Positions 6,452 through 44,267 are shown, counted from the first letter of the stretch. The stretch: 44,524 nucleotides of DNA from Clostridia bacterium (GCA_045538365.1 JAZSRG010000171.1:1-44524), one strand, 5' to 3'. Numbers and translations are program-made. The notes: generated by a model not told the origin, from the sequence alone.

Positions 6452-6967
6452 ATGCAGTTTGACAAAAGAAAATACGACCCGGCGTATCATGATAAATTCC
6501 GAGCGTTGACCGTGAAACAGCCATACGCCAATGATTTAGTAACGGCGGCATATAAGGACGACAACGGCAATGTAATTGGGGTTAAATCTATCGAAGTACG
6601 CAGTAAGAATACGCAGTATCGCGGCAACTTACTAATTTGTTCGTCAAAAAGCCCGGTTTTGCCGGGAATGGAAAGCGGCGTAACGTTGGGATTCGTTGAA
6701 TTGTACGACGTAAAACCGATTTCAGAGTTTACCCCGGAAGATTGGGAAAATACCCGTATTCCGGTGGAGAAACGCAAGGAAATAACAATGGGTTACGGTT
6801 GGTTAATGAGAAACCCGCGCCGCGTGTTAGAATACCCGGTTAAGGGGCAATTAGGTATTTACAATTTGGTTTATACCAAAGGCGAAATTATCCAATATCC
6901 GCAAACCGTTGTAATGGATAAAGAGGGTTGGAAACATGTTAAAAACTCAATCAATCATGGAAAATAA
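6452..6967 (+). CDS. ASCH/PUA-like domain protein (putative)
   Basis: LTVKQPYANDLV...IEVRSKNTQYRGNLLICSSK resembles the ASCH N-terminal signature. Confidence 0.5.
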   Translation: MQFDKRKYDPAYHDKFRALTVKQPYANDLVTAAYKDDNGNVIGVKSIEVRSKNTQYRGNLLICSSKSPVLPGMESGVTLGFVELYDVKPISEFTPEDWENTRIPVEKRKEITMGYGWLMRNPRRVLEYPVKGQLGIYNLVYTKGEIIQYPQTVVMDKEGWKHVKNSINHGK

Positions 6968-7268
6968 AACAGAAATGACATTGCCGACGGAAAACGCGGC
7001 AATCATACAGAGAGAAGCCGCCAATTATGGATGCGTCGTTGTCGGATTGGCGGTTGTAGGTAATGGGAACGCCCGAATATCTGTAACCGGAAACCCGGAT
7101 AAGATAGACGAACTTATGCAGTTGGCAAAGCCTAAATTTACCACAAACGGCGAGGTTGTGGATATGTATAACAACGGCTATGCAATCGAAGATATTGCCG
7201 ACGAATTGGCATTGAGCGAAACGGATGTTTTTGAAATGCTACAAAACGCGAATTTAATACCGGAATAA
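6957..7268 (+). CDS. Hypothetical protein (103 aa from ATG 6957)
   Basis: The track ORF starts at 6936. ATG 6957 reduces the overlap with the upstream gene. Confidence 0.6.
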   Translation: MENKTEMTLPTENAAIIQREAANYGCVVVGLAVVGNGNARISVTGNPDKIDELMQLAKPKFTTNGEVVDMYNNGYAIEDIADELALSETDVFEMLQNANLIPE

Positions 7269-8933: not shown

Positions 8934-9183
8934 TCTTGAATATGCCGACAACGGCATGATTATAACGCAATCGCAATTTAATTCTATCGTAGTCGTCGAA
9001 TATTTAAAGGACGCGAAAGGGGAAGATATTTGCGAGAATTGCGCAAAGGAATTGGGAAAAGAAATATTTGAGGATTTAGACCAACGCTACAACGCAATTA
9101 TCGGAAATCTCCCGATTGGCAAAATCTTAATCGGTTGGGAACTTGACATAAAAGTTAAACCCCGTTACAAGAAAATGAAATAA
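8911..9183 (+). CDS. Hypothetical protein (90 aa from ATG 8911)
   Basis: The track ORF starts at 8812. ATG 8911 (MEKKLTYNLEYADNG...) gives only a 23-nt overlap. Confidence 0.55.
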   Translation: MEKKLTYNLEYADNGMIITQSQFNSIVVVEYLKDAKGEDICENCAKELGKEIFEDLDQRYNAIIGNLPIGKILIGWELDIKVKPRYKKMK

Positions 9184-9194
9184 GGCAGTAAACA

Positions 9195-9226
9195 CCCCGG
9201 AAATGACAACCGGGGGTTTGCTGTTT
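9195..9226 (+). terminator. Intrinsic terminator ending the 116..9183 early unit
   Basis: CCCCGG-9 nt-CCGGGG followed by GTTTGCTGTTTT. Confidence 0.6.
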
Positions 9227-9245
9227 TATGACATAAGCACGGAAA

Positions 9246-9278
9246 TTGCACAACGTATTGAAAAAAGCCGTAAATTTG
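9246..9278 (+). promoter_or_regulatory. Candidate promoter for the packaging/structural operon
   Basis: -7 box TAAATTTG (9271-9278) and TTG at 9246-9248. The 22-nt spacer is longer than the 19 nt seen in the early cassettes. Confidence 0.35.
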
Positions 9279-9330
9279 CCCCGTAGAGGGACGAAAGAAC
9301 CCAAGACAATAAAAGTATCATGTAAAGAAC

Positions 9331-9367
9331 AAAAGCCGCTTAAAACGAAAATTCCGAGAAAATAACA
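9331..9367 (+). repeat. 37-nt conserved element, copy A (33/37 identical to 31646..31682)
   Basis: aaaagCcgcttaaaacgAaaattcCgAgaaaataaca vs aaaagTcgcttaaaacgCaaattcGgGgaaaataaca. Confidence 0.8.
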
Positions 9368-9382
9368 AAGGGTTAGTTGTTT
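9360..9382 (+). promoter_or_regulatory. Late-gene stem-loop 1: AAATAAC-[AAAGGGTTA]-GTTGTTT
   Basis: 7-bp stem (one G-U) presenting the invariant 9-nt loop. Ends 80 nt upstream of ATG 9463. Confidence 0.7.
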
Positions 9383-9462
9383 CAAGCGAAAGAGAGAAAA
9401 ACAAAACATGCTTATCGTTGGAATTGTTATTGCTTTTCTTTCAGCGTTAAAGAGGTTAAGAA

Positions 9463-10110
9463 ATGGAAGAAGTCAGAAAGAGGGCTAAACCCCGAATGTG
9501 CAAGCGCACTAAAGAGCAAATCGCATTTGACCGCGCATTTTGCGCCGACTTGTTTTTGCGCGGTTATCCGTACCGGGAAATTGCCAAACGATTGAATGAT
9601 GATTTGGCAAAACGCAAAATGGAATATCGTTTGACGGAATCAATGGTTTATTACGATATTCAACAACTGCTTATTGCATGGAAGCGCGACCAATTGGAAA
9701 GCATAGACCAATATGTTACGGCGGAATTGCAGAAGTTGGATAAAATGGAGGTTGAAGCGTGGAACGCGTGGGAACTATCCAAGCAAACGAAAACGAAAAA
9801 CAAGACAAAGAAAGCCGGAAACGGTTTAATGGGTCGTCAAATAATGACGGAAAAGGCAACCGAAACGGCATCCGGAAACCCGCGTTATCTTGATTTGCTG
9901 TTGAACATACAGCACCGACGCGCAAAGATGTTGGGATTTGATGCGCCAATAAAAATAGCGATTCCGGGCGTTAATGTAACCGTCAACAATGAGAACGAAA
10001 GGTTTAACGTTGAATCAATCCCGGACGATTTGTTATTTGCAGTAGCGGACAAATTGCAATCCGCCGAATATGCCAAGATTTTAGCCGAAAAAACGGGCGG
10101 TAATGCTTAA
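9463..10110 (+). CDS. terS: Terminase small subunit (putative)
   Basis: Sits immediately upstream of terL. N-terminal HTH-like region (GYPYREIAKRLNDD). Size is typical. Confidence 0.5.
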   Translation: MEEVRKRAKPRMCKRTKEQIAFDRAFCADLFLRGYPYREIAKRLNDDLAKRKMEYRLTESMVYYDIQQLLIAWKRDQLESIDQYVTAELQKLDKMEVEAWNAWELSKQTKTKNKTKKAGNGLMGRQIMTEKATETASGNPRYLDLLLNIQHRRAKMLGFDAPIKIAIPGVNVTVNNENERFNVESIPDDLLFAVADKLQSAEYAKILAEKTGGNA

Positions 10111-10171
10111 AGTTTCGTTTTTGGAAGTCTTAAAAAACACGGGGTTTTAAATAATTTCCAAAGGTTTTAAC

Positions 10172-11740
10172 ATGGGTAACAAAAGAGAGCAAAAAGACGC
10201 TTTGTTAAAAGCATACGCGCAAATAAAAAATAACCCGGCGGAACTTGTCAAACAAGCCGCCCGGAAGCGATTGTTGAACTTTGCCCGATACATGCAACCG
10301 GATATGGTAGTTGAGCCGTTCCACGCTGTATATTACACGGTTTTAGACATGTTCGCACATGGCAAAATACGTAAGTTAATTATTCAGCAACCGCCGCAAC
10401 ACGGAAAATCCGAGGGTTCAAGCCGAAAATTGCCCGCATTCATGTTGGGTTTGAATCCCGATTTGAAAATATGTATTGGAAGTTATGCGGCGACAATCGC
10501 CCGCGACTTTAACCGCGATGTTCAACGCTTGATTGATACGCCAAGTTATCGCCAATTGTTCCCGGAAACCTATTTGAACGGTTCAAACGTGGTAACAATG
10601 GCGAATACTTATTTGCGCAACTCCGATGTTATTGAAATGGTGGGGCATAAAGGTTCGTTGCGCGTTGTCGGTCGTGGCGGTTCGTTGACTTCTAAGACGG
10701 TGGATGTTTCCATACTTGACGACGTATATAAGGACTATGCCGAGGGAAACAGCCCAATAGTACGCGAAGCGTCGTGGAAATGGTACACGTCCGTTGTCCG
10801 TCCCCGCTTGCATAATGATTCGCAAGAACTAATCGTTTTTACACGTTGGAATGATGACGACGTAATTGGACGTATTGAGAAATCCGACGAAGTGATTATT
10901 GATGTAAATTCATGGGACGACTTAAAAGATATTCCGCCGGGCGCATGGGTAAGAATCAATTTTGAAGCGCTAAAAACGGGCGAACCGACTGAAATAGACC
11001 CGCGCCCGGTTGGTGCGGCATTGTGGGAAAGCAGACACAGCCGCGAAAAGTTGGAAGCACAACGGGCACTTGACCCGGTGTTATTTAATTGCCTTTATCA
11101 AGGCAACCCCGGAAGTGCAGAGGGCAAATTGTATCAGCCGTTTAAAACATGGGTTGAAAAATCCGATTACGGGCAATATATCCGTTCGGGCTGTTACGTG
11201 GATGTTGCGGACGAGGGGGACGACTTGTTATTTGCCGCGACGTATGATATTTATAAATCCGACAATCAGTATTGGAACGAAAAGACGCGCCGATTTGAGC
11301 CGATTTTGTATGCGTTAATTACCGATATGGAAATGACGGACGAAAACACCGACGTAACCACGCGCACCGTCCCGGCGTTAATTAATCGAAACGGAGTGCA
11401 AAAAGCATGGGTTGAGAGTAACAACGGCGGTTCGCAGTTTGAAAAGACGATAAAAAGCAAAGTTAAGGCGTTGACCGTTCCGTTTTATCAGTCCGGAAAC
11501 AAGGAAAGCCGCGTTATTACAGCGTCCGCAATGGTAAATCAACAAATCATTATGCCGTTTGGCTGGGAAAAGAGATTTGAACCGATATACAAACATATTT
11601 CCGGTTTTCTCCGTGATTTCGGAGCAAACAAGCACGACGACCCGGAGGACGGATTGACGGGCATATATGAAAAAGAATTGGCGGACGGAAACATTAAGCC
11701 ATACGGACACGAAAACCGGGGCATTAAGGTACGCAATTAG
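10172..11740 (+). CDS. terL: Terminase large subunit
   Basis: Walker A-like QQPPQHGKSEGSS, Walker B VSILDDVYKD, and a C-terminal nuclease-like half. 522 aa. Confidence 0.9.
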   Translation: MGNKREQKDALLKAYAQIKNNPAELVKQAARKRLLNFARYMQPDMVVEPFHAVYYTVLDMFAHGKIRKLIIQQPPQHGKSEGSSRKLPAFMLGLNPDLKICIGSYAATIARDFNRDVQRLIDTPSYRQLFPETYLNGSNVVTMANTYLRNSDVIEMVGHKGSLRVVGRGGSLTSKTVDVSILDDVYKDYAEGNSPIVREASWKWYTSVVRPRLHNDSQELIVFTRWNDDDVIGRIEKSDEVIIDVNSWDDLKDIPPGAWVRINFEALKTGEPTEIDPRPVGAALWESRHSREKLEAQRALDPVLFNCLYQGNPGSAEGKLYQPFKTWVEKSDYGQYIRSGCYVDVADEGDDLLFAATYDIYKSDNQYWNEKTRRFEPILYALITDMEMTDENTDVTTRTVPALINRNGVQKAWVESNNGGSQFEKTIKSKVKALTVPFYQSGNKESRVITASAMVNQQIIMPFGWEKRFEPIYKHISGFLRDFGANKHDDPEDGLTGIYEKELADGNIKPYGHENRGIKVRN

Positions 11741-11782
11741 CAAAATATTTGATTGATAAATAATTTATTCGGTGCAATTTGT

Positions 11783-11790
11783 TATATTTG
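11783..11790 (+). promoter_or_regulatory. Candidate -7 promoter box TATATTTG
   Basis: Matches TAnnTTTG. No well-spaced -33 TTTG was found. Confidence 0.3.
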
Positions 11791-11799
11791 CCCCGAACA

Positions 11800-11818
11800 A
11801 CGGCAAAGGGTTAGCCGT
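11800..11818 (+). promoter_or_regulatory. Late-gene stem-loop 2: ACGGC-[AAAGGGTTA]-GCCGT
   Basis: 5-bp stem with the invariant loop. Ends 37 nt upstream of ATG 11856. Confidence 0.7.
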
Positions 11819-11855
11819 GAAATACTATTGTTTAACGTTAAAAAAGTAACAAATT

Positions 11856-12503
11856 ATGGCTATTACTTGTAAATGCCCGGCGGCGGCTTCACTTGAAACA
11901 ATCCCCGTCGTTGTTTGTACCGAGAGTTTCGGACAAATTCAAAAAGTAGCGTTTCAGCGTCTGACAAATGACAATGGCGTGAAAAATTCGTTTACAGCAG
12001 AAGCGGCAATTACCGCGCTTGCATCATGGACACCGAAATTGGCGGCGGACGATTCAACCAAAATCGTAGTTTCTCCGTACATCCAAGCCCCAACAGAGGA
12101 AGCGGGCGCGGCGCGTACATTCGGCGGCGGTAACGAAACATTGGGCGGAATCGAAGAAATCATTGGACGCGAGCCAAACGCATTTACGGCGGCACTCCGT
12201 AAAATGCCGCAGTCTGTTATCAAAATTATGAAGCAACTGCAATGCGAAGCGGCGGCGGGCAATTTGGGCGTTTTCCTTTTCGACGAAAACGGAAATATCG
12301 AAGCAATCCAAGACGAAACCACAAAGACAACGTATTATCCAATTCCGATTCGTTCGCTTTTCGTAGGCGACAAGGCGCATGGAGGTTTGGAAGCACCGGA
12401 CAGCAACGCAATTTCGTGGTCGTTCATGCCTAACTATTCCGACAACCTCGTTATCATTACGCCGGAGTTCAACCCACTTACAGACCTTAAACCCGTGCAG
12501 TAA
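11856..12503 (+). CDS. Hypothetical virion-module protein (215 aa) between terL and the portal gene
   Basis: ATG ORF with its own leader stem-loop. Function unknown; a major tail protein role is only a guess. Confidence 0.7.
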   Translation: MAITCKCPAAASLETIPVVVCTESFGQIQKVAFQRLTNDNGVKNSFTAEAAITALASWTPKLAADDSTKIVVSPYIQAPTEEAGAARTFGGGNETLGGIEEIIGREPNAFTAALRKMPQSVIKIMKQLQCEAAAGNLGVFLFDENGNIEAIQDETTKTTYYPIPIRSLFVGDKAHGGLEAPDSNAISWSFMPNYSDNLVIITPEFNPLTDLKPVQ

Positions 12504-12715
12504 TGAACGCGAAAACAACTAAAGTAGCGTTGCAATGCGACGCGTTGGGCGTTACGCAAGAATTTGAAATAACCCACGCCGAAAGGCTGTTAAGGATGCA
12601 GAACAACGGCGGTTGGGTATTACCTAAAGAATCCGATTATATTTTTGAAAATGGGACTATCAGTAAGCGAAATAAGAAAGCGAATAACGGAGCGAAGAAA
12701 GGCGGCGACAATTAG
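12503..12715 (+). CDS. Hypothetical protein (70 aa)
   Basis: TAATG coupling to the upstream gene. Confidence 0.5.
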   Translation: MNAKTTKVALQCDALGVTQEFEITHAERLLRMQNNGGWVLPKESDYIFENGTISKRNKKANNGAKKGGDN

Positions 12716-14354
12716 CCGTGCAATTCAGCACCAAAACCGCATACGTTTTCACGCGCAAACCGTGTTAACGCCGTACATTTGCCAACCGACGACGGATTTT
12801 TTGGCATTTGTTCAAAATCTTATTCCGCACGATAAGTTTAAAATTTTCAAGGCATTGTTCCGTTACCCCGTAAAAACAAACGAGGTAACGGGAATTTGCT
12901 TTGACAAATTAAGCCGCATTTTCGACGGTCGTAACCCGGCGTTCAACTATCAGTTCATGAGTTCAGAACAACGCGACGACTGGGAATATTACCGTAAAGA
13001 AGTATTGAAAGAACCGACCATTTGGGAAACCAAGGGTTGGGAATTTTTCAAATCGGAAATTAACAGCGTCTTAATCGTTGATTTGCCGACGGTGCAACGA
13101 AACGCAGATTATCCCGAACCGTATTTTTATTGGCTTCCAATCGAAAGCGTTATAACCTTTGAAGCGAACCGCACAACGGGCGTTATGGATTATATCGTTT
13201 TCCGTCAAGACGACGGGCATATTGCCGTTATTGACGACGAAAGGTATAGAATCTTTCGTGAGGACAAAAACCATAATATCGGGGAATTGTTGGTTGATAA
13301 TCCACACGACTTAGGATATTGCCCGGCGCGTTTCTTTTGGGATACGCCAATTTCATTGAAAGAACCCGACATAAAGGAAAGCCCGTTAACAAAGCAATTG
13401 GAAAGTTTGGATTGGTTTTTATTTTACCATACGTCGAAACGCCATTTGGATTTGTACGGTTCATATCCGATATATTCCGGTTACGAACAATCATGCGATT
13501 TCAGCAATGCGGAAAACGGCGACTATTGCGACGGGGGATTTTTGAAAAACAAACAAGGCTTTTATAAATTCGACCAAGCCGGGATGTTGTGGCGTTGTCC
13601 TAAATGCGGCGAAAAACGCATAATTGGCGCGGGTTCATTCGTGGAAGTTCCCGTACCAACCAACGAACAACCCGATTTACGCAACCCGGTTCAGATATTG
13701 AGCGTTGACCGTGAAAGTTTGGATTATAACGTTGATGAAGTCGAAAGGCTGAAAAACGACATAATTACGGCGGTTGTCGGAACAAATGAAGAAATTACGA
13801 CCCGCGACGCACTCAACGAACAACAGATAAGGGCGAACTTTGAAAGTCAATCAACAATCTTAAACCGCATTAAGAAAGGTTTTGAAAATGCGCAACAATT
13901 CGTTGATGAAACAATTTGCCGTTTGAGATATGGTGACATGTTTATTTCGGCAAAAGTGAATTTCGGCACGGAATTTTACATTTACGACGTTAACGATTTG
14001 CGACAGCAATACAAGACCGCAAAGGAAAGCGGCGCGAGTGAATCCGAGTTGGACGCATTGCACAACAAAATTATCGAAACGGAATACCGAAACAATCCGA
14101 CCGAATTACAACGTATGTTGGTATTGGCTGAACTTGAACCATACCGCCATTTAACACGTAATGAAGTGGTTGATTTTTACAAAGGCGGTATAATTTCCGA
14201 AACAGATATGAGAATTAAGTTGAATTTTTCTAACTTTGTTCGCAGATTTGAACGGGAAAATACAAACGTTTTGGAATTTGGTACAGAAATACCATATCAA
14301 AGAAAGATTGAAATAATAACATCTAAATTTAAAGATTATGCTAATCAGAACTGA
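12651..14354 (+). CDS. Portal protein (putative)
   Basis: 567 aa from the first ATG (the track start 12645 is TTG). Size and position just downstream of terL, upstream of the scaffold and capsid genes. Confidence 0.55.
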   Translation: MGLSVSEIRKRITERRKAATISRAIQHQNRIRFHAQTVLTPYICQPTTDFLAFVQNLIPHDKFKIFKALFRYPVKTNEVTGICFDKLSRIFDGRNPAFNYQFMSSEQRDDWEYYRKEVLKEPTIWETKGWEFFKSEINSVLIVDLPTVQRNADYPEPYFYWLPIESVITFEANRTTGVMDYIVFRQDDGHIAVIDDERYRIFREDKNHNIGELLVDNPHDLGYCPARFFWDTPISLKEPDIKESPLTKQLESLDWFLFYHTSKRHLDLYGSYPIYSGYEQSCDFSNAENGDYCDGGFLKNKQGFYKFDQAGMLWRCPKCGEKRIIGAGSFVEVPVPTNEQPDLRNPVQILSVDRESLDYNVDEVERLKNDIITAVVGTNEEITTRDALNEQQIRANFESQSTILNRIKKGFENAQQFVDETICRLRYGDMFISAKVNFGTEFYIYDVNDLRQQYKTAKESGASESELDALHNKIIETEYRNNPTELQRMLVLAELEPYRHLTRNEVVDFYKGGIISETDMRIKLNFSNFVRRFERENTNVLEFGTEIPYQRKIEIITSKFKDYANQN

Positions 14355-14856
14355 CGACGGAAGCGTTAAGGATGAATCAATTATCAAAGTAAACGCTTCA
14401 AATTACATTGTCCCGGACAATGAAAAACATCTTTATCATTGCAAAATAGAGGTTCGCAAGTTCGACCAAGACACGGGCGCAAGGCTTTCAAAACCACGTA
14501 TTCAGAAGTTCGGCGCAAAAATGTTCAAACAGATTTCCCACGAACTGAAAAGGCAGGGCTACACGATTGACATTTTGCACAATCCAACCGAGTATATGGA
14601 AGCCGAGAAAGCACGCAAAGCCGAGGAAGCGGCAATGACAGCCGAGCGCAAGGCAAAGGAAGCCGAGGAAAAGAGAGCCGCCGAGGAAGCGGCACGCAAA
14701 GCGGAAATTGACGCGGCGGTTGCGGCGGCATTGGCTGAACAAAAGAAACAGCATGAAGCCGAGATTGAAGCGGCGGTTGCAAAGGCAATGGCAAAGGCTG
14801 AAAAGAAATCTAAGAAAACCGTCAAAACAGAGGAATCAGAAACAAACGCCGAGTAA
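14338..14856 (+). CDS. Hypothetical head-module protein with Ala/Glu/Lys-rich helical C-terminal half
   Basis: KARKAEEAAMTAERKAKEAEEKRAAEEAARKAE... low-complexity helix. 17-nt overlap with the portal gene. Confidence 0.6.
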   Translation: MLIRTDDGSVKDESIIKVNASNYIVPDNEKHLYHCKIEVRKFDQDTGARLSKPRIQKFGAKMFKQISHELKRQGYTIDILHNPTEYMEAEKARKAEEAAMTAERKAKEAEEKRAAEEAARKAEIDAAVAAALAEQKKQHEAEIEAAVAKAMAKAEKKSKKTVKTEESETNAE

Positions 14857-14876
14857 ATCCCGGCAAAGTATAACAA

Positions 14877-14899
14877 ATAATTCAAAGGGTTAGAATTAT
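14877..14899 (+). promoter_or_regulatory. Late-gene stem-loop 3: ATAATTC-[AAAGGGTTA]-GAATTAT
   Basis: 7-bp stem. The 3' arm includes the A and T of start codon 14898. Confidence 0.7.
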
Positions 14900-15848
14900 G
14901 GCACTAACAAGAGAAATTATAACGGCAAATGCCGTTTTGTCCGGTCTTACAGACGAACAGATTAACGCGATTACTACATTATCGCAGAACGACGAAAATA
15001 CGGTTATCGGTCAAAGAATCGGGGAAATTTACCGACAAATGGATGCGACCATTGCGACCGCAACCGGAATACAGCGCAACGGCGACGAAAAGACGTACAA
15101 TTATTTGGAAAGAGCAACCGCCGAATTGTCCGAAAAGGCAAAAGGCGTTGACGGTCTTAACCGTCAAATTGCAGACCTTACCAAAGAAAAAGCCCGACTT
15201 GAAAAGGTAATCGCCGAGGGCACGGGCGACGCTGAAACACGCAAAGCATTGGAGCAAACCCGAAAGGATTTGGCGGCGGTAACAAAACAATTTACCGACC
15301 TTAAAACCGAATATGACAGCGCGAAACAGCAACACGCAACCGAATTGTTCAACGTTAAGATAGACCAAGAAATTGGCGTGGCAACGGCGGCAATCAAATT
15401 CAAAGACGGATTTCCGGCAAGTGTTACCGGGGTATTGCTTAGCCAAGCAATTGAAAAGGTTAAAGGCATGCACCCGGAATATATAGACGACGGAAAGGGC
15501 GGCAAGGTTTTAGCGTTTAAGGACGAAAACGGCGCAATCATGAGGAATCCGGAAAATCAGTTGCACCCGTACACCGCGAGCGACCTAATTACAAAGGAAC
15601 TCAAAGGAATGGGCGTTTTGCATGAGGGACGACAGCAAACCGGGGGCGGAACACAGCAACCGGGCGGCGGAAATGGCGGAAACGGTGGAACAATTGACAT
15701 ATCCGGAGCGAAAACACGCGTTGAAGCATACGACGCAATCGCCGCAAGCCTTATGGCGCAAGGACTTGTTAACGGTTCGGCTGAATTTGACGCGGCAATG
15801 AATCAAGCATGGAAAGACAACAACGTTGCATCATTGCCGGAAAAGTAA
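14898..15848 (+). CDS. Scaffolding protein (putative)
   Basis: Coiled-coil-rich 316-aa protein with a Gly-rich segment (GGGTQQPGGGNGGNGG), directly upstream of the capsid gene. Confidence 0.45.
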   Translation: MALTREIITANAVLSGLTDEQINAITTLSQNDENTVIGQRIGEIYRQMDATIATATGIQRNGDEKTYNYLERATAELSEKAKGVDGLNRQIADLTKEKARLEKVIAEGTGDAETRKALEQTRKDLAAVTKQFTDLKTEYDSAKQQHATELFNVKIDQEIGVATAAIKFKDGFPASVTGVLLSQAIEKVKGMHPEYIDDGKGGKVLAFKDENGAIMRNPENQLHPYTASDLITKELKGMGVLHEGRQQTGGGTQQPGGGNGGNGGTIDISGAKTRVEAYDAIAASLMAQGLVNGSAEFDAAMNQAWKDNNVASLPEK

Positions 15849-15856
15849 GACAAGCA

Positions 15857-15875
15857 CGGGCAAAGGGTTAGCCCG
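15857..15875 (+). promoter_or_regulatory. Late-gene stem-loop 4: CGGGC-[AAAGGGTTA]-GCCCG
   Basis: 5-bp GC stem with the invariant loop. Ends 29 nt upstream of ATG 15905. Confidence 0.7.
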
Positions 15876-15904
15876 AATTTAATAACAACAAAAATTTATC
15901 AATT

Positions 15905-17005
15905 ATGAGTTTAGTAGCAACAAGACTTCAAAATTGGCGAGTTGAAAACCCGGAGTTAGACCGTAATATGACCCGCCCGTGCGAGTATGGCGCGTTGGAT
16001 TTCTTCATTGAGCAGACCAACGCCGCAAACTCTATTCTTTCCCCGTATCTGCGTGAACGTGCGTTTGCGTCTATGGGTAACACCGTACAAATTCCGGTAA
16101 TTGAGTATGACGGAAACGTGCAAGTTTCCAACCAAAGAACATGCGTTATCGCCGACAACGAAAATACGTCCGCACTCTATACGATTGCATGGGTAACGTA
16201 TTCGGTGGGCTTTACAATGGTTCCGGCGGCGTACTCAAACAACGAAATTTCATACGAACATGACTTCATGCGTAAAATGGAAAAGATTTCAAGGGCATTG
16301 GCAAACGAACTTGACAAAGGCGCGGTTGCGGCACTTGAAGCCAACAAAACGCAGGTGTTCAAAGACCTTTTGCAGTATCAGGAGGTAGGAAACGTTATTG
16401 AAGTTCCAACCCAAATGGCAACCGAAATTTTGGGCGATGTTAACCCAATCATGAGGGCAAATTGCTATCCGGAAATGATACACATTATCGGTAACGCGGG
16501 CGTTGATTCGCTTGTACGCAAACTTGCACAACATGGCGTGTATAACGACGTTAACAAGCGTATGGAATACGATAACAAGGTACTCCACTACACTAACAAC
16601 GTAACAAACGAAGAGGGCAAAAACGGAACATTCTTTGCCGCTGTTGACGGTAACGTTGGCGTACTTACACGCGTTGACCGTGAAGCACTCCGCCGCGCCC
16701 GTGCAAACTTCCATGAATGGGATGTTGTAAGACTTCCATTCATTGACCTCCCGGTTGGTTCGCACTATTACACAGCCGTAGGCGACCAATCCGCAATCAT
16801 GGGCGATGCAACCGCCGACCTTACATGTGCAGTTAAGGAGTATTTCGGATTTAGCGTTGACGTGGCATTTGTTGTGGCATACAACAGCGACCCGGAAACC
16901 GTAGCAAATCCAATCATTAAGGCGCAGATTGCCGCACCGGGCGCAAATACTCCAATCGGAATGCCCGTTTATGTTACTAACGCCGCACAATTTCCCGGCG
17001 CGTAA
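15905..17005 (+). CDS. Major capsid protein (putative)
   Basis: 366 aa, follows the scaffold-like gene and is followed by the strongest terminator in the window. Confidence 0.6.
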   Translation: MSLVATRLQNWRVENPELDRNMTRPCEYGALDFFIEQTNAANSILSPYLRERAFASMGNTVQIPVIEYDGNVQVSNQRTCVIADNENTSALYTIAWVTYSVGFTMVPAAYSNNEISYEHDFMRKMEKISRALANELDKGAVAALEANKTQVFKDLLQYQEVGNVIEVPTQMATEILGDVNPIMRANCYPEMIHIIGNAGVDSLVRKLAQHGVYNDVNKRMEYDNKVLHYTNNVTNEEGKNGTFFAAVDGNVGVLTRVDREALRRARANFHEWDVVRLPFIDLPVGSHYYTAVGDQSAIMGDATADLTCAVKEYFGFSVDVAFVVAYNSDPETVANPIIKAQIAAPGANTPIGMPVYVTNAAQFPGA

Positions 17006-17033
17006 CATCTAACGAAACGTATTGTATAACCGA

Positions 17034-17063
17034 GGGACGGGGCTAATTGTCCCGTCCCTTTTT
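17034..17063 (+). terminator. Strong intrinsic terminator after the capsid gene
   Basis: GGGACGGGGC-taatt-GTCCCGTCCC followed by TTTTT. Confidence 0.8.
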
Positions 17064-17075
17064 CAATTTAAGACA

Positions 17076-20574: not shown

Positions 20575-23500
20575 ATGCCGAACAATCCAATAAAATATTC
20601 GGATTTGGTAAGCCCGGACAATTCGATTACCGACCTTATCAAACAATTGCAAGACCTTTTAAAGACGTACAACGATACCGCCGGGGGAATTAAGGCGGAA
20701 GCCATACAATTAACGCAAGTTTTAAAAGGCGTATCGGGTGCGACGGATGAGGGACGAACCGCCACAAAAAAGGCGGCAGACGATGCGGAAAGATTGGCAA
20801 AGGCTCAACGCGATTTGGCATTTGCTGAGAGCGAAACAGCCCAAAAGATTGCCGAACTGAAAGCTGCGCAAAACGAAGCAAACCAAATTAACAAATTGAC
20901 GGTTAAATTGAATAGTTCCGCCGAAGGTAGTTATGACAGATTGTCGGCGCAATATTCATTAAATAAAATCCGTATCAATGCAATGACGCAAGAGGAGCGA
21001 GAATTGGCAGAGGAGCAAGAGGGACTTATAACTAAAACGCGCGAATTATACGAGGAAATGAAGCGTTTGCAGGAGGAAACGGGCAAACATCAATTGAACG
21101 TCGGTAATTATCCGGAAGTAAGCGGCGCAATTGCGGGCGTTTCGGATAAAGTAACCGAGTTAATCGGGCTTAATAACGCTTTTGGACAAAGTATTTTGGC
21201 GTTGGGTCGTGGCGGTGCGGATAGTAAGGCAGTATTTACAGCAATGGCGGACGGTGCAAAAGCATTGGGCGCGTCGTTAATGGGATTGTTAACTAACCCG
21301 GTATTTATCGCAATCGCAGGAATTGCGGGCGCGGGCGTGGCGTTTAAATGGTGGTATGACTATAACGCCGGATTGGTAGAAGCAACCCGACTAACCCAAC
21401 AATTTACGGGCAAATCCGGGGACGACCTCAAAGCATACCGCAACCAAGTTCAAGCAATCGCGGACACTTTCGACGTTGAATTTAAAGAAACATTGATTGC
21501 CGCCAATGCACTTTCAAAGCAATTCGGAATTGACGCAAACGAAGCGTTACAACTGATTCAAGACGGATTCGTTGCGGGCGCAAATGCCAACGGCGAATTT
21601 ATTGATACGCTGAAAGAATATCCGGCGTATTTTAAGGAAGCCGGAATAAGTGCCGACCAATTCGTTGCAATCGTCGCGCAAACCAATAAAGCGGGTATTT
21701 TCAGCGACAAAGGCGTTGACGCAATCAAGGAAGCAAATTTGAGATTGCGCGAAATGACAACAGCAACGGCGGAAGCGTTAGAGGGTATCGGCATTTCGTC
21801 CGAGCAAGTCCAAGCCGATTTGCAAAGCGGAGCAAAAACAACGTTCCAAGTGATGCAAGATGTTTCGGCAAAACTTAATGAATTGCCGGAAAGTTCCGCC
21901 GCCGTTGGTACAGCCATTGCGGACATATTCGGTGGTCCGGGAGAAGATGCAGGCTTGCAGTATTTACAGACGTTGAGAGATATTTCGACGAATTTAGACG
22001 ACGTAAAGACGAAAGCCGGAATATTGGGACAATTGCAGGAACAGCAGTTGCAAAGCCAATTGGAGTTGCAAAATGCGTTATCGGGATTGTTCGATTTGAC
22101 CGGGGGCAACTTTGAAACACTACAAACCCGCGTTAAAATCTTTATCAATGGAGCATTAACCGGGCTTATCAAGGGCGTTATAAATCTTGCAAATTATCTG
22201 ATTGACTTTTATAACAATTCGTTGTTGTTACGTGCGGCATGGCAAGGAATCGTTGTAACGTTCAAAAATGCGTTCGATACAATCGGCAATTTATTTGGCT
22301 ATTTCATGGATGTATTACGCGCCGTTGGTTCAACTATTAAGGGCGTATTTACATTGGATTGGGACGAATTTAAGGCGGGTTTGTCCGGATTTGCAAACGC
22401 ATTGCCTAATCTTGTTAAGGCGCAAATAAATGATGTACGCGAAAATATAACCGAGGGAATCGAAAACATAAATAACCGATTAGAACCAATTACGATTCCG
22501 GTAACGGTTGACAATGCAGAAGTTGAACAAGTTGCGGCGCAAGTCGTTAAATCTGTTGAGAAAGCGGCGCAAACCGGGGACGGGGGAACGAAACCAAAGC
22601 CAATTGAAAGGATGTTGGGAATTACCCCAATAGATACAAAAAAAATGCTTGGCGGTGTTAAAAAAACAACGCAAGACACATTAACAACGGTTGACAATGT
22701 AATAACAGAAGCGACGCAAGAAACTAAACAGCGCGGAACGGATATATATAGCGTTTTCGGGCTGAATCTTGACGACGACACCAAAGCGGGTATTGATTCA
22801 TCCGTACAATACGCAAAAGATGCGTTAAATAGTTACATAGACGAATATATTGCGGCGACGGAAAAAAAGGTTGAAGCCGCCGACCGTGACGTTGAAGCGG
22901 CACAAAGAGCGTTGGAAGTTGAGATTGAAAACAGAAACGCCGGATATGCGCATAATGTAGCGACCGCGCAAAAGGAATTGGAAATGGCGAAACGCAATCA
23001 AGAAAAGGCGTTGAGAGAGCAAGAGAAAGCCCAAAAGGCACAAGCCGCCGTACAATCTATTATGCAAATCGGCGATTTGGTCACAGCGTCGGCAATGATA
23101 TGGTCGCAACTGGGATTCCCGTGGGCTATCCCGGCTATCGGTATAATGTGGGGGTCTTTTGCCGCTTCAAAAGTAAAAGCGGCGCAATTGGCGAAAACAC
23201 AGACATACGGCGACGGTGGTGTTGAATTGTTGCAAGGAGGTTCGCACCAATCCGGAAACGACATTGATTTCGGAACACGCCCGGACGGAACACGCCGACG
23301 TGCCGAGGGCGGCGAATTTTTCGCGGTTATCAATAAACGCAATTCGCGCCGTTTCCGCCACTTGATACCGGATATTGTTCATTCGCTGAATAATGGAACA
23401 TTCCCGGCAAAGTATATGAACGCGTATGCAACCGGGGACGGGCTGACATTAAACATTGGCGGAAATTCGCCGGATTTACGGGCATTGTCTGACGATGTGC

Positions 23501-27009: not shown

Positions 27010-28842
27010 ATGGGAACGTATGAAGATTTAAAAAAAGCCATTCAAGCCGTTATAAAAACTAACGGAAATAATGAAATTACGGGCGAATTACTGCAACAAA
27101 CACTTTTGGCAATCGTTAATACTATTGGGAAAAATGCAACCTATGCAGGGGTTGCAACCCCAACGACCAATCCGGGTTCGCCAGACCAAAATGTTATATA
27201 TTTGGCAGTTGCCCCCGGAAATTATGCGAACTTCAATGCTATCGCATTATCGCCCGGAGAAATTGCAATCATTTCTAATAACAACGGTTTTTGGGAAAAA
27301 CACACGCTTTCCCCAATTAATTATACGCCGATTACCTATGCTGAATTGGTAAATTTAAGAAATGGCGGTGGGTTGTTTCCGGGGTATTATTACCGAATAA
27401 CAGATTACGAAACTACAACCACACAAGCAAACACGCGTGCGGCGGGACATTTATTTGATATTGTCGTTTTGGCATTGTCACCAAATGAACTTTCGGAACG
27501 CGCATGGGCTGTACATTCTGAAAGGGATGTTGACGGGTACTTTTCAAATTCAAATCTTTCAGCGTGGGAAATATGGTACGCGTTGAATAACGATTCGGAA
27601 CGTTTCGCATGGGCTGATGTGAATAACGGAAAGGGCGTTATTTATCGCATGGTTGACGAATGGAATAACGATTGTCCGTATGACTTTAAGAACATTATAA
27701 TCGTTAACAATTATAGTTTTCAATATTTTCAATGGGGGCAAACTTATCAATTTATTCGAAATGAAAGCATTGATATTGTTATTGACAATATACAATATTA
27801 TGGCTATACTTCTAACAAGGTACCGAGTGCATGGAACAATGGTAATTGTTGGCTTATAGATGAAATCCCGTCTATTGATAGCGTACTATATAAAAATGAT
27901 GGTTCTGTTATTTCTTATGGCGGGACAATTCGAAAGGTAAATTCTGTGTATAGTGCAAACTATACTTTTGAAGGTGCTAATGATTTAGTCGGAAGGAGTA
28001 CGCAAAATACCATTCGACCGTATATAATAAACGACAAAAGACATATTAACAACATAACTTTTCGCGATATTTGCCATGGCAACACTTTCGGTGATAATTG
28101 CAGTAGTAACGTTTTAGGTCAAAACTGCAGTAATAACACATTCGGCAATGGTTGCAGTAATAACACATTCGGCAATGGTTGCGATAGTAACACATTCGGC
28201 AATAATTGCAGTGGTAACACATTCGACGATGAATGTAGTAGTAACACTTTCGGTGATAATTGCAGCAATAACACTTTCGGTATTTATTGCAGCAATAACA
28301 CTTTCGGCGATGAATGTAGTAGTAACACTTTCGGTGATAATTGCAGCAATAACACTTTCGGCGACCGTTGCAATAGTAACACTTTCGGTATTTATTGCAG
28401 CAATAACACTTTCGGCGATGAATGTAGTAGTAACACTTTCGGCGACCGTTGCAATAGTAACACTTTCGGCAATGAATGTAGAAGTAACACATTCGGCAAT
28501 GGTTGCGGCAATAACACTTTCGGTATTTATTGCAGCAATAACACTTTCGGCGATGAATGTAGTAGTAACACTTTCGGCAATGATTGCTATGATAATGCAA
28601 TGCTTGCATACGCACGATATAACACATTCGGCAATGGCGTACAACGCATGAATCTTATATCAGCAGCACCCGGTAGCGCGTTAAATTTCGCGCAAAATTA
28701 TCGCATTACTAATGGCTTACAGGCAGGATCGGGAGGTTCAGCGCAAATCATACAAGTTGAACGAAACAGAAATTACGAAACAACCATTGGTAGAAATAGT
28801 GCCGGGAATATTAAACAATTTTGCGTTGCTGATATGTTTTAA
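27010..28842 (+). CDS. Tail fiber / receptor-binding protein candidate with NTFGxxCxx nonapeptide repeat array
   Basis: Last large gene of the tail module. About 21 tandem 9-aa repeats lie in the C-terminal third. Confidence 0.65.
   Translation: MGTYEDLKKAIQAVIKTNGNNEITGELLQQTLLAIVNTIGKNATYAGVATPTTNPGSPDQNVIYLAVAPGNYANFNAIALSPGEIAIISNNNGFWEKHTLSPINYTPITYAELVNLRNGGGLFPGYYYRITDYETTTTQANTRAAGHLFDIVVLALSPNELSERAWAVHSERDVDGYFSNSNLSAWEIWYALNNDSERFAWADVNNGKGVIYRMVDEWNNDCPYDFKNIIIVNNYSFQYFQWGQTYQFIRNESIDIVIDNIQYYGYTSNKVPSAWNNGNCWLIDEIPSIDSVLYKNDGSVISYGGTIRKVNSVYSANYTFEGANDLVGRSTQNTIRPYIINDKRHINNITFRDICHGNTFGDNCSSNVLGQNCSNNTFGNGCSNNTFGNGCDSNTFGNNCSGNTFDDECSSNTFGDNCSNNTFGIYCSNNTFGDECSSNTFGDNCSNNTFGDRCNSNTFGIYCSNNTFGDECSSNTFGDRCNSNTFGNECRSNTFGNGCGNNTFGIYCSNNTFGDECSSNTFGNDCYDNAMLAYARYNTFGNGVQRMNLISAAPGSALNFAQNYRITNGLQAGSGGSAQIIQVERNRNYETTIGRNSAGNIKQFCVADMF
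28081..28647 (+). repeat. In-frame tandem repeat array, 21 x 27 nt (NTFG-x-x-C-x-x)
   Basis: aacac(t/a)ttcgg recurs every 27 nt. Exact 65-nt blocks occur at 28270-28334, 28378-28442 and 28513-28577. Confidence 0.95.
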
Positions 28843-31786: not shown

Positions 31787-31802
31787 CCCGGCGCATTCCG
31801 GG
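31787..31802 (+). promoter_or_regulatory. Early-leader hairpin copy 2 (CCCGG-CGCATT-CCGGG), 18 nt upstream of ATG 31821
   Basis: The stem is swapped relative to copy 1, so pairing is preserved. Confidence 0.7.
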
Positions 31803-31820: not shown

Positions 31821-32066
31821 ATGACAACATCAATTTACAACGGTTTGGAGTACACAACAACAGAGATTAACCGCAACTATAAAATTAAGGTTTACGGATA
31901 TGTTGACGGAATCAAGATTAACAAGTTGGTAGGCGTTCGCGGTCTTATACAGTTAATCGGCGTTGAAATGGCTAACAAGATGTTGCGCCGCGCTTTCCGT
32001 TGCATGGACGATGTGCAGGTTTGCAAACTTCGTCGCGGTATTAAGATTTCGTTTTATTCATGCTAA
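31821..32066 (+). CDS. Hypothetical early protein (81 aa)
   Basis: ATG ORF downstream of P1 and the hairpin. Confidence 0.65.
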   Translation: MTTSIYNGLEYTTTEINRNYKIKVYGYVDGIKINKLVGVRGLIQLIGVEMANKMLRRAFRCMDDVQVCKLRRGIKISFYSC

Positions 32067-32075
32067 TTCATTCGA

Positions 32076-32091
32076 CCGGGCGATTTCCCGG
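32076..32091 (+). promoter_or_regulatory. Early-leader hairpin copy 3 (CCGGG-CGATTT-CCCGG), 20 nt upstream of ATG 32112
   Basis: Intercistronic, with no promoter in between. Confidence 0.7.
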
Positions 32092-34350: not shown

Positions 34351-34367
34351 CCGGGCGGGATTCCCGG
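34351..34367 (+). promoter_or_regulatory. Early-leader hairpin copy 4 (CCGGG-CGGGATT-CCCGG), 19 nt upstream of ATG 34387
   Basis: 7-nt loop variant. Confidence 0.7.
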
Positions 34368-34603: not shown

Positions 34604-34675
34604 TGGGATTTGGTGTAATGGTTAGCACATTAGATTTTGGTTCTGACAATCCGGGTTCGATTCCCGGAATCCCAA
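34604..34675 (+). tRNA. trnQ: tRNA-Gln (anticodon UUG)
   Basis: Hand-folded cloverleaf: acceptor TGGGATT/AATCCCA, D arm GTGT-AATGGTTA-GCAC, anticodon arm TTAGA-TTTTGGT-TCTGA, variable loop CAAT, T arm CCGGG-TTCGATT-CCCGG, discriminator A. CCA is not encoded. Confidence 0.85.
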
Positions 34676-34684
34676 CTAAACCGA

Positions 34685-34700
34685 CCCGGCGATTTCCGGG
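34685..34700 (+). promoter_or_regulatory. Early-leader hairpin copy 5 (CCCGG-CGATTT-CCGGG), 16 nt upstream of ATG 34717
   Basis: Lies 10 nt after the tRNA 3' end. Confidence 0.7.
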
Positions 34701-35561: not shown

Positions 35562-36833
35562 ATGAGAGCGAAAGAAATAGAAAACGACGCATTGGCGGCA
35601 CTTATGGCAACAGAGCCGGAAAACCGCGCGTTTGAGATTGTCCCCGGAATGACGGTTGAGGAAATGCAATGTATGTTTTTCGACAAAACGGCATTGATTG
35701 AACCCCCGTACAAAGTATTTCAGTTAAACAGCAAGGGACACCGTTATTATTACCGATTCGACGAAAACGGACAACCCGAATTTTTCCCGTCCGTAACAAC
35801 CATTTTGTCGCAGACACTCCCAAAATCGCCATTCCTTATTGAATGGATTGCGTCAAAGGGCATGGACGAAGCGGAACGATACAAGGCGGAACGCGCGGCA
35901 TACGGAACGTTTATGCACGCCCAATTTGAGGAACTTATCATTAACCGCGTGTATAATCTTGATGACCTCAAAGAGAAGTTGAAAACATATATTGAGGTTA
36001 ACAGATTGCCGGACAACTTCATTTATTACGCGGACGACTTGAAAAAGGACGTTTTAGCGTTCGCACAATTCGTCAAAGATTATGACGTGCGCCCGTTGGC
36101 TGTCGAAATTGCGTTGGTACATCCATATTACAAGTATGCCGGAATGATTGATTTGCCGTGTACGATGTTACGCAAGCTGGGCGGAACGGAAAGGATTAAC
36201 GCCATAGTTGATTTTAAGAGTGGGCGCAAAGGTTTTTATGAGGAAGCCGAAATACAATTACATCTTTACAAAATGATGTGGAATGTGACGTTTGAGGAAC
36301 ATCCGATAACAAACGTTTTCAATTTCAGCCCGAAAGATTGGCGCAAAAAACCGTCTTACAACCTCAAAGACCAAACAGACAGCCCGAACGCCGCAAAGAT
36401 TCCGGCATTGTTGGAGATTGCCGCCATTGAGGACGACAAGCGCGACAACATATTTACAGCCGTTTCCGGTTCAATCAGTTTGGACGAACCGCAAGATTTT
36501 ACGGACAACGTTATATCGTTGACATTGGCGGAACTTATCAAGACAAAAGCCCCGGTTGAGGAAACCCCGGACGAAACCACGGACGCAACCGTTGAAGTCA
36601 AGGCGGCAAAGCCGGAAAAAGCCGTTAAAAAGGAAACAAAGACAACAAAGGTTGTCAAGCGTACAGCCAAAAAGACGGACACCGCGAAAAAGGGCGAAAA
36701 CAAGCCCGTCAAGGCTTCCAAATCTTCAAAAGGTACAACCGCACCAAAAAAGGAAGAAAAGCCCGTAAACGCGAAAAAAGAAAAAATTAACGCACAAAAG
36801 AAGTCGTTATTGGCAGACGACCCGGAAATATAG
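35562..36833 (+). CDS. PD-(D/E)XK (RecB/lambda-Exo-like) nuclease with Lys-rich C-terminal tail
   Basis: GTFMHAQFEE, GMIDLPC, IVDFKSGRK (DxK), EIQLHLYK (QxxxY). The last 90 aa or so are K/T/A-rich and histone H1-like. Confidence 0.65.
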   Translation: MRAKEIENDALAALMATEPENRAFEIVPGMTVEEMQCMFFDKTALIEPPYKVFQLNSKGHRYYYRFDENGQPEFFPSVTTILSQTLPKSPFLIEWIASKGMDEAERYKAERAAYGTFMHAQFEELIINRVYNLDDLKEKLKTYIEVNRLPDNFIYYADDLKKDVLAFAQFVKDYDVRPLAVEIALVHPYYKYAGMIDLPCTMLRKLGGTERINAIVDFKSGRKGFYEEAEIQLHLYKMMWNVTFEEHPITNVFNFSPKDWRKKPSYNLKDQTDSPNAAKIPALLEIAAIEDDKRDNIFTAVSGSISLDEPQDFTDNVISLTLAELIKTKAPVEETPDETTDATVEVKAAKPEKAVKKETKTTKVVKRTAKKTDTAKKGENKPVKASKSSKGTTAPKKEEKPVNAKKEKINAQKKSLLADDPEI

Positions 36834-36836
36834 GAT

Positions 36837-37547
36837 ATGAACGGACGTATTATAACAAGACCGGGGACTGAATCGCCCCGGCTTAAATTTCCGAGAATCG
36901 GAAAAATCAAAATCGGAATGAAAAACGCAAAGGGATTCCCGCAAAGTGTGGATTATTTCATTGCAACCGGGAAATATGCCGGATTGTTTACACAAGCATA
37001 CGGCGACAAGCCGCAAACAATCCAAATAGTATTCCCGGACGACGACCCGAAAACGGTATGTTGCGAACAATACGAATATAGGGACGATTCCGGGCGGCTG
37101 ATTGCAACCGGGGACGGGGAAACGTTCAAGGTTTGGAACGGGTCAAGGTATGAGGAAATGACGCGGACGCAATACCCGCATATCATGGAATCAATCGGCA
37201 AACGATACCCAAACAAAGAGTACAAAAAGACCGGGGACGGTTGGCGTGTACGTTTAACGCTTAACTTCATTATTCCAATGGTTCGCGGCGTGGTTGGCGT
37301 TTGGACGTTTGAAACCAACGGCAATGCGTCAACAATCCCGCAAATTACGGATGCGTTCGATACCATGTTAATTGAACGCGGATTTGCAAAGGGTATCATT
37401 TTCGACCTAAACGTTAAGTTTGCGACGACACAGAAGCCCGGCGATAATTCCCGTTTTCCGGTCGTTTCATTGGTAGCCAATGAAAGCGCGGAAAACATAG
37501 CCCGGATAAAAAGAGCAAACGAACCGTTGCAGATTGAAAATAAATAA
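36837..37547 (+). CDS. Hypothetical protein; possible recombination partner of the nuclease (synteny only)
   Basis: 236-aa ORF directly downstream of the PD-(D/E)XK nuclease. I recognise no motif. Confidence 0.6.
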   Translation: MNGRIITRPGTESPRLKFPRIGKIKIGMKNAKGFPQSVDYFIATGKYAGLFTQAYGDKPQTIQIVFPDDDPKTVCCEQYEYRDDSGRLIATGDGETFKVWNGSRYEEMTRTQYPHIMESIGKRYPNKEYKKTGDGWRVRLTLNFIIPMVRGVVGVWTFETNGNASTIPQITDAFDTMLIERGFAKGIIFDLNVKFATTQKPGDNSRFPVVSLVANESAENIARIKRANEPLQIENK

Positions 37548-43707: not shown

Positions 43708-43723
43708 CCCGGCGCGTTCCGGG
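43708..43723 (+). promoter_or_regulatory. Early-leader hairpin copy 7 (CCCGG-CGCGTT-CCGGG), 18 nt upstream of ATG 43742
   Basis: The flank acagcgaCCCGG is identical to copy 2. Confidence 0.7.
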
Positions 43724-44171: not shown

Positions 44172-44267
44172 ATGAAAGACCCCACGACCAAGCCAATACA
44201 CAAACGAGGTCGTTATAAGGCAAAAGCCGTAAGAGTTGTAAGAAGCACGGGAACAACAAAGGGTTAA
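44172..44267 (+). CDS. Possible 31-aa highly basic leader ORF
   Basis: Hand translation MKDPTTKPIHKRGRYKAKAVRVVRSTGTTKG. Its stop codon lies inside the CAAAGGGTTAA motif. May be non-coding. Confidence 0.2.
   Translation: MKDPTTKPIHKRGRYKAKAVRVVRSTGTTKG

Follow-up and report, generated by a model that had tools for sequence, protein, structure and literature searches.

Covarying hairpins with a conserved loop in the late-gene leaders of Bacteroidota phages

The stretch of DNA examined here, 44,524 nt deposited under Clostridia bacterium (GCA_045538365.1 JAZSRG010000171.1:1-44524) and referred to as the window at its full length, is a siphovirus genome of ~44 kb in which every gene lies on the + strand. 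Its packaging and head region shares ~75% nucleotide identity with Parabacteroides phage PDS1, Bacteroides phages C1_85S2P and BKO1-3, Alistipes phage AS73P1 and Parabacteroides phage PD491P1. An initial annotation had drawn attention to an 11-mer that recurs in this region within small stem-loops. The exact 11-mer, CAAAGGGTTAG, is found at 9366, 11804, 14883 and 15861, on the + strand only, at the positions first reported. With up to one mismatch allowed, dinucleotide-shuffled sequences contain 0.43 matches on average and none of 100 shuffles reaches five, in agreement with the claim that this recurrence exceeds chance. The arms that flank each copy are complementary to one another yet differ from site to site, and all four sites occupy + strand leaders of late genes, namely those for a terS-like protein, major protein 2 (MP2), a scaffold-like protein and the major capsid protein; on both counts the initial description was accurate.

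Hairpin 1 (9360-9382; arms AAATAAC/GTTGTTT at 9360-9366 and 9376-9382, 7 bp including one U-G; loop AAAGGGUUA at 9367-9375) is embedded in the long leader of the terS-like gene, ~90 nt past a -7 box at 9271 and 80 nt ahead of the ATG at 9463. The gene that follows (9463-10110, +; 215 amino acids; phrog_645) is directly upstream of terL and encodes an N-terminal helix-turn-helix; sequence and position indicate a putative small terminase subunit. In public records its homologues appear as 'RNA polymerase sigma factor' (PDS1) or 'RNase E' (BKO1-3, P2559S and phrog_645). We considered the sigma factor label and rejected it: Pfam lends it no support, the N-terminal helix-turn-helix is of the terS type and the gene is in the terS position, and covarying arms are unfit for a duplex promoter. 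Hairpin 2 (11800-11818; arms ACGGC/GCCGU, 5 bp; loop 11805-11813) begins ~10 nt past a -7 box at 11783-11790 and is predicted to lie near the 5' end of the MP2 transcript, 37 nt ahead of the ATG at 11856. The MP2 gene itself (11856-12503, +; 215 amino acids) encodes a homologue of B40-8 'major protein 2' (phrog_8193, 1e-73). Hairpin 3 (14877-14899; arms AUAAUUC/GAAUUAU, 7 bp; loop 14884-14892) precedes the scaffold-like gene (14898-15848, +; phrog_7970, with weak matches to Phage_scaffold and phrog_194). Its 3' arm ends with the AT of the scaffold start codon (ATG at 14898), which bears out the reported contact between arm and start codon, and the GGG of its loop is 8 nt from the AUG. Hairpin 4 (15857-15875; arms CGGGC/GCCCG, 5 bp; loop 15862-15870) lies 8 nt past the scaffold stop codon and 29 nt ahead of the ATG at 15905 of the major capsid protein gene, an MP1 homologue (15905-17005, +; phrog_7231, 4e-121). 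Within the window all four stems close on C-G around the loop AAAGGGTTA. Matches to R1, a covariance model built from 51 distinct copies of the hairpin, score 22.1, 28.7, 30.3 and 31.5 bits for hairpins 1 to 4.

Neither a scan for hairpins with AAGGG-type loops nor model R1 adds a further copy in the window, and the early regions are free of them, as had been noted. A fifth, imperfect copy of the 11-mer, CAAAGGGTTAA at 44257-44267, had been described as stemless and situated at the border of the terminal repeat. This much holds: it carries one mismatch and straddles the start of the 132-nt terminal redundancy (1-132 = 44262-44393). As a member of the system, however, we rejected it, for it has no arms and no counterpart in relatives, and a single match with one mismatch is within chance expectation. 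Behind the redundancy, 44394-44524 holds 131 nt of unrelated GC-rich sequence; the two together look like an assembly overlap followed by a foreign tail.

How stable are these hairpins? Those with A/U stems, hairpins 1 and 3, are missing from the minimum-free-energy fold of their local context, and hairpin 4 is the sole site that folds clearly better than its shuffles (z = -1.9), so that thermodynamic support is significant only there. The case for hairpins 1 and 3 is accordingly made by covariation, not by thermodynamics. A terminator scan of the window lists none of the four, and their 3' flanks are devoid of T-runs.

The comparison of the 51 distinct copies separates a constrained loop from a free stem. 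Loop positions 1, 4, 5, 6 and 9 (A..GGG..A) are unchanged in all 51 and positions 2 and 3 are A in 50, while positions 7 and 8 vary. The invariance of loop and C-G closing pair, as first proposed, is thus correct for this genome and too strict for its relatives, where the loop reads A-A-A-G-G-G-N-N-A and the closing pair may be C-G, U-A or U-G. In the stem, Watson-Crick pairs fill 229 of the 255 cells (90%) of the five inner positions, and each of the five shows two-sided compensatory changes. The covariation score of the alignment is 0.669, against 0.238 +/- 0.025 for shuffles, none of which (0/500) reaches the observed value; as the 51 copies are kin, these shuffle counts are not to be read as probabilities. 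The argument is carried instead by the control in which the 3' partner was slid by 1-3 columns, where covariation drops to 0.20 or less, and by the many different stem types. Stems at the capsid site drift from CGGGC/GCCCG to CGGGT/ACCCG and GCGC/GCGC, with CGGGT/GCCCG as a wobble intermediate; those at the scaffold site occur as AATTC/GAATT, AAATC/GATTT, TAATC/GATTA and TAAAC/GTTTA. RNAalifold independently predicts the same helix. By this comparative evidence the hairpin structure is under selection, the loop is under sequence selection and the stem is free in sequence, as the initial annotation had proposed.

Is the arrangement of four sites peculiar to this phage? To examine this independently of the stems, the four genes were placed by tblastn in 86 sequences (the window, five isolates and 80 IMG/VR loci) and the DNA upstream of each was inspected by position, without use of the stems for selection; an AAAGGG-type loop flanked by at least four paired bases was scored as a hairpin. 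The leader of the capsid gene contains it in 85 of 85 loci and that of the scaffold gene in 81 of 81. For MP2, a copy of the motif is present in 67 of 71 loci, ~63 of them with at least four flanking pairs, and the terS leader displays the hairpin in most loci surveyed. Nothing comparable was seen by this inspection in the leaders of terL, the portal gene, the 172-amino-acid gene g172 or the gene that follows the capsid gene. Model R1, the kind of search that the initial annotation had suggested, finds exactly four significant matches in each of five complete genomes (the window, PDS1, AS73P1, PD491P1 and Elizabethkingia phage TCUEAP2). In the 80 IMG/VR loci, 1.15 Mb in total, it returns 228 matches, every one of them a coding-strand match at one of the four homologous positions, and none within 8 kb downstream of the capsid gene. 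TCUEAP2, whose host belongs to the Flavobacteriia and whose capsid protein is 71% identical, retains all four hairpins with new stems (GGGGC/GCCCC, AATTC/GAATT, GGGC/GCCC and ATTTC/GAAAT). At site 1, the orthologous hairpins of PDS1, AS73P1 and TCUEAP2 (ATTTC/GAAAT) have unrelated stems.

Relatives of the capsid protein occur in phages of Bacteroides, Parabacteroides, Alistipes, Elizabethkingia, Croceibacter and Flavobacterium. In distant lineages (phages of Croceibacter and Flavobacterium, and other Bacteroides and Parabacteroides phages) the hairpin persists in weaker versions with an AAGGG core. Examples are found at the scaffold site of Croceibacter phage P2559S (agtaaAAAGGGAAAttactATG, stem AGTAA/TTACT), at the capsid site of P2559Y (gtgCAAGGGTAAcac), PD691P3 (gcgCAAGGGTAAcgc) and BF486P2 (aatgtaCATGGGTAAtgcatt), and at the MP2 site of FPSV-S2 (ttgcAAAGGGAACgcaa) and MT835637 (a 9-bp stem around TAAGGGTG). 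The copy just past the promoter of MP2 is kept most widely, with variants in L093, BF486P2, PD691P3, P2559S and FPSV-S2, and the L093 lineage has retained only this promoter-proximal copy. In B40-8-like phages the loop motif was not found, though they infect the same hosts as motif carriers. They possess a plain GC hairpin at the equivalent place ahead of the capsid gene, and canonical GAAAGGAG(G) 7 nt ahead of the scaffold ATG (L087 ~7013-7032; also L094 and L095). R1 has no match in two unrelated Bacteroidales phages and one Bifidobacterium phage. Rfam 15 at gathering threshold recognises only a tRNA-Gln in the whole window, a permissive scan of 9150-16000 yields three chance-level matches, none of them on the hairpins, and a search of the literature for the motif, or for hairpins of these phages, turned up no description, consistent with the view that it had not been described before. 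The motif is strongly conserved and is a putative new cis-regulatory RNA element of the general boxB/operator-hairpin kind, outside the known families tested.

Which transcription units contain the hairpins? A Bacteroides-type -7 box, TAAATTTG at 9271-9278 (+), follows a terminator-like hairpin with a T-rich tail (9195-9215) and marks the inferred late promoter P1; the box GTAAATTTGC is kept in PDS1, AS73P1, many IMG/VR loci and TCUEAP2. A second box of this type, TATATTTG at 11783-11790 (+), directly upstream of hairpin 2, defines the predicted late promoter P2, and a TAnnTTTG box 14-35 nt ahead of the MP2 hairpin is present in every lineage examined. The -7 box alone is not enriched (54 matches in the window, 52 expected), and P1 is called a promoter because its box is conserved and intergenic, not because of enrichment. 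Sites 3 and 4 are in intercistronic gaps of 41 and 56 nt that contain no promoter box. The head-gene unit is closed directly after the capsid gene by a strong intrinsic terminator (17032-17065, +; 12-bp stem and T-run). A hairpin with T-run is found after the capsid gene in all lineages and the next gene begins only ~25 nt further on; tail genes therefore need read-through transcription. A mechanical gene call that starts at 17022 (TTG) overlaps this terminator, and the true start is probably later.

Other sequences in these leaders also attract attention. The MP2 leader contains a perfect palindrome, TTTAACGTTAAA at 11831-11842, between hairpin 2 and the ATG, which is kept in PDS1, C1_85S2P, AS73P1, BKO1-3, TCUEAP2 and PD691P3. 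Six nt ahead of the terS-like ATG is AAGAGGT (9450-9456), similar to a Shine-Dalgarno (SD) sequence and kept even in the Elizabethkingia phage; such sequences are of note in a phylum that is largely without them. In relatives (PDS1 ~22455-22570, most IMG/VR loci) the terS leader extends for an additional 80-100 nt 3' of hairpin 1 relative to the window and is purine-rich there, with AAAGG(G/A) and GGAACC repeats and a perfect TAAGGAGGT that has no open reading frame behind it.

We infer from the comparative data that the element acts as RNA. All copies are on the coding strand and in leader or intercistronic position, and the copy at the scaffold gene stands in a fixed register to the AUG; this register of AAAGGG is kept across host classes, even in Flavobacterium phages that have lost the stem. 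The interpretation that we tentatively favour, with somewhat less than even confidence, is that the four hairpins are copies of one cis-acting RNA element through which a loop-specific trans-acting factor controls head-gene expression post-transcriptionally. Late mRNAs would carry four copies of a hairpin with an arbitrary stem of 4-7 bp and a 9-nt loop A-A-A-G-G-G-N-N-A. A trans-acting factor, most likely a protein and more likely encoded by the phage than by the host, would read this loop and coordinate the translation and/or the stability of the mRNA for the terS-like, MP2, scaffold and major capsid cistrons, the terS-like gene being the one that would open the late operon. At the scaffold site, where the weak A/U stem ends in the AUG, binding would clamp or expose the start codon in the style of a classical translational operator; at MP2 and capsid, hairpins 33-45 nt upstream of the AUG would sit at the 5' edge of the ribosome-binding region. 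A bound partner is indicated because the A/U hairpins are unstable on their own and the loop is invariant. That the effect is post-transcriptional follows, in our interpretation, from the promoter-less intercistronic gaps of sites 3 and 4 and from the preserved register at the scaffold AUG. The partner appears to travel with the phage because the motif is the same in phages of Bacteroidia and Elizabethkingia and absent from two unrelated Bacteroidales phages and B40-8-like phages. Since the hairpins accompany the most heavily used structural genes and the gene that opens the late operon, their role may be a positive one. A repressor, by analogy with MS2 or the autoregulation of P22 scaffold, would be just as compatible with the arrangement at the scaffold AUG.

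Several observations weigh against a loop-read operator. Only one of the four sites, that of the scaffold gene, can occlude a start codon, and hairpin 1, at 80-170 nt from its AUG, is a poor fit to translational control. Pfam and PHROGs scans of the ~60 open reading frames reveal no recognisable RNA-binding regulator, sigma factor or antiterminator. The partner may be a host factor, the ribosome included, as the phage specificity is based on two unrelated Bacteroidales phages. Finally, the need for a G-U pair, put forward initially as an argument for RNA, does not survive: the 51 distinct copies hold five T-G/G-T and five A-C/C-A pairs, a tally that is uninformative on RNA versus DNA or on the strand.

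Could the conserved site instead be read in DNA, as a late promoter element, a protein-binding site or an extruded hairpin like the early promoters of N4? A conserved 9-mer loop upstream of late genes would suit such a site and the wobble tally is compatible with DNA, but we consider this highly improbable. A site for a protein on duplex DNA is disfavoured because the arms covary yet differ between sites, for which duplex DNA gives no reason; domain scans of the open reading frames detect neither a phage RNA polymerase nor a sigma factor, a host-type promoter is already in place immediately ahead of site 2, and a promoter at site 3 would start transcription at or after the AUG. Cruciform extrusion is energetically very unfavourable for an arm of 5 bp with a loop of 9 nt, and the hairpins are correspondingly implausible as cruciforms. 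The reverse complement was also tried as a Bacteroides -7 box and discarded, TAACCCTTTG being wrongly spaced and on the wrong strand. Within RNA, a translational operator, a processing site and an antitermination signal, the three roles first suggested, are all still live, and the comparative data favour a post-transcriptional role over antitermination. The nearest rival to an operator is a signal for processing or stability, to which we assign a low but real likelihood: an endoribonuclease of host or phage would read the loop and cut nearby, so that head-gene mRNAs would gain a protective hairpin as their 5' end and run to the terminator behind the capsid gene, with increased dosage of scaffold, capsid and MP2 mRNA. 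Hairpin 2, within ~10 nt of a -7 box and so close to the 5' end of its transcript, and hairpins 3 and 4, intercistronic and ahead of the two genes needed in greatest amounts, are well placed for this, the head-gene unit does end at a strong terminator, and the plain GC hairpin ahead of the capsid gene in B40-8-like phages suggests a structural role older than the motif. A mere 5' stabiliser, however, needs no invariant loop, and at sites 1 and 3 the A/U stems are not strong enough to shield an end by themselves; the domain scans identify no candidate nuclease, and the fixed scaffold-AUG register is left unexplained. Antitermination of the nut type is unlikely in our estimate. Here the nascent hairpin, together with a phage protein or alone like the put RNA of HK022, would modify RNA polymerase to pass the post-capsid terminator into the tail genes, which depend on read-through of a 12-bp terminator that in every lineage is followed by the next gene after only ~25 nt. 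As with nutL and nutR, the first two sites lie close to promoters, and a short stem with a loop-specific signal resembles the workings of boxB. Yet processive antitermination does not require three copies per transcript, two of them hugging start codons, nor does it account for the conserved scaffold-AUG register; B40-8-like phages share the terminator arrangement without the motif. The retention of the promoter-proximal copy alone in the L093 lineage also counts against it. No N-, Q- or NusG-like protein is detected by Pfam or PHROGs in the ~60 open reading frames, although small arginine-rich proteins are hard to detect.

A different possibility is that the loop is read by the ribosome. If AAAGGG were a displayed SD-like element, it would pair with the 3' tail of 16S rRNA (5'-UCCUUU-3') and bring 30S subunits, perhaps those that lack bS21 or bS18, to late mRNAs of a phylum whose ribosomes ordinarily disregard the SD. 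AAAGGG can pair along its whole length with UCCUUU, one of the pairs being G-U, and lies 8 nt from the AUG at the scaffold gene, B40-8-like phages have the canonical GAAAGGAG(G) in that position, the terS leader of relatives carries TAAGGAGGT and AAAGG repeats, and SD-led genes exist in Bacteroidota for rpsU and rpsR (PMC7797042). On the other hand, G6 is invariant although A would pair better, and a spacing of 5-10 nt is realised only at the scaffold site, the other three being 33-170 nt from the AUG. Ribosomes of Bacteroidia reportedly do not respond to the SD (PMC13000453), and Elizabethkingia carries an altered anti-SD (ASD2), UCUCA (PMC13000453, PMC7797042, PMC6107228). TCUEAP2 keeps AAAGGG or AGAGGG at its four sites although the anti-SD of Elizabethkingia breaks pairing at G4, and because this phage retains AAAGGG against the altered anti-SD of its host genus, pairing with the 16S tail is disfavoured; we regard it as very unlikely. 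A broader version fares somewhat better and still strikes us as doubtful: the hairpin may be a phage-specific signal for ribosome recruitment, whose AAAGGG..A loop would dock head-gene mRNAs on the 30S subunit, directly or via a phage adaptor protein, for privileged translation. If true, this would explain both the SD-like distance at the scaffold AUG and the footprint-edge position at MP2 and capsid.

How does the element compare with known systems? The boxB/N system of lambda similarly has a 5-bp stem of little sequence importance, a sequence-specific purine-rich loop and several copies in phage operon leaders, and two of the four copies described here are promoter-proximal and ahead of the terminator at 17032, with sites 3 and 4 intercistronic. 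The loop in all 51 copies, however, is the 9-nt AAAGGGNNA, whereas boxB has a GNRA-like pentaloop (GAAAA/GAAGA); neither a boxA partner nor an N-like protein was identified, start codons adjoin two of the copies within the operon, and the hosts belong to another phylum. Site 3 recalls the coat-protein operators of MS2, R17 and PP7, being a weak hairpin at a start codon that would be read through its loop bases and would need a protein for stability. Those operators are single sites in RNA phages, with a bulged A and a loop of 4-6 nt, in contrast to the four sites of this double-stranded DNA phage, and inclusion of the start codon is restricted to site 3, sites 1, 2 and 4 being 29-80 nt from the AUG. 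Like CsrA/RsmA sites, the hairpins present a G-rich motif in short loops at multiple positions in 5' leaders, one of which overlaps a translation initiation region, and relatives have purine tracts with repeated AAAGG(A/G). The core, however, is GGG rather than GGA; with an A at position 7 in only 21 of 51 copies, GGA is missing from the other 30 loops, and no member of the CsrA family was matched among the phage open reading frames scanned. Small leader hairpins bound by a dedicated small protein are also known from Com/mom of phage Mu (translation activation) and from LoaP (read-through), but they show no sequence resemblance to ours, and neither a Com zinc finger nor a NusG paralogue was detected here. 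Scaffolding autoregulation in P22 controls a scaffold gene by post-transcriptional feedback while heads are being built, and hairpin 3 would be suitably placed for such control, though nothing here ties the scaffold protein to the hairpin; we know of no RNA operator defined for P22. ANTAR target RNAs differ in consisting of two tandem hexaloop hairpins (A1, G4), the second overlapping a terminator, in contrast to the single hairpins with 9-nt loops and no adjacent terminator described here, and hairpin promoters of the N4 type have a 3-nt loop and employ a phage RNA polymerase, the gene for which we did not find.

Which phage protein might read the loop? The sole domain hint is a sub-threshold ASCH domain (E = 0.06) in the open reading frame at 6452-6967. 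A phyletic pattern that matches that of the motif is shown by this ASCH-like frame and by those at 539-1984, 31821-32066, 35562-36833 and 36837-37547; such profiling singles out no partner because a co-inherited replication module shares the distribution of the motif. An AlphaFold single-sequence model of the 81-amino-acid product of 31821-32066 (pLDDT, the predicted local distance difference test score, of 60) is too poor to use. An antisense or kissing partner within the phage was considered and rejected: TAACCCTT is absent from the window, and CCCTTT occurs there five times, in terminator tails or coding regions.

Phages of this group are frequent in the human gut, 565 IMG/VR contig stretches encode a related capsid protein, and several members have been cultured on Bacteroides, Parabacteroides and Alistipes. 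Little is known of how Bacteroidota phages control the dosage of late genes, or how high translation is attained in a phylum without SD pairing. An RNA regulon of four sites with a 9-nt recognition loop offers a compact and directly testable handle on these questions and could lead to a new RNA-binding regulator. The hairpin could also account for the proportions in which scaffold, capsid and MP2 are made, and could supply a portable expression-control part for Bacteroides engineering.

A second class of hairpins, CCGGG-N6-7-CCCGG (or CCCGG-N6-CCGGG), occurs in early-gene leaders ~15-25 nt ahead of ATGs, at 80-95 (= 44341-44356), 31787-31802, 32076-32091, 34351-34367, 34685-34700 and 43708-43723. 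Unlike the late hairpins, these are conserved in their stem sequence, which resembles the T-arm (CCGGGTTCGATTCCCGG, 34651-34667) of a phage tRNA-Gln(UUG) encoded at 34604-34676; they could be DNA operators or RNA elements. AS73P1 has such a tRNA too. A 27-bp tandem repeat (18.8 copies, 75% matches) at 28081-28587, inside the open reading frame 27010-28842, would give a probable tail or fibre protein a 9-residue repeat.

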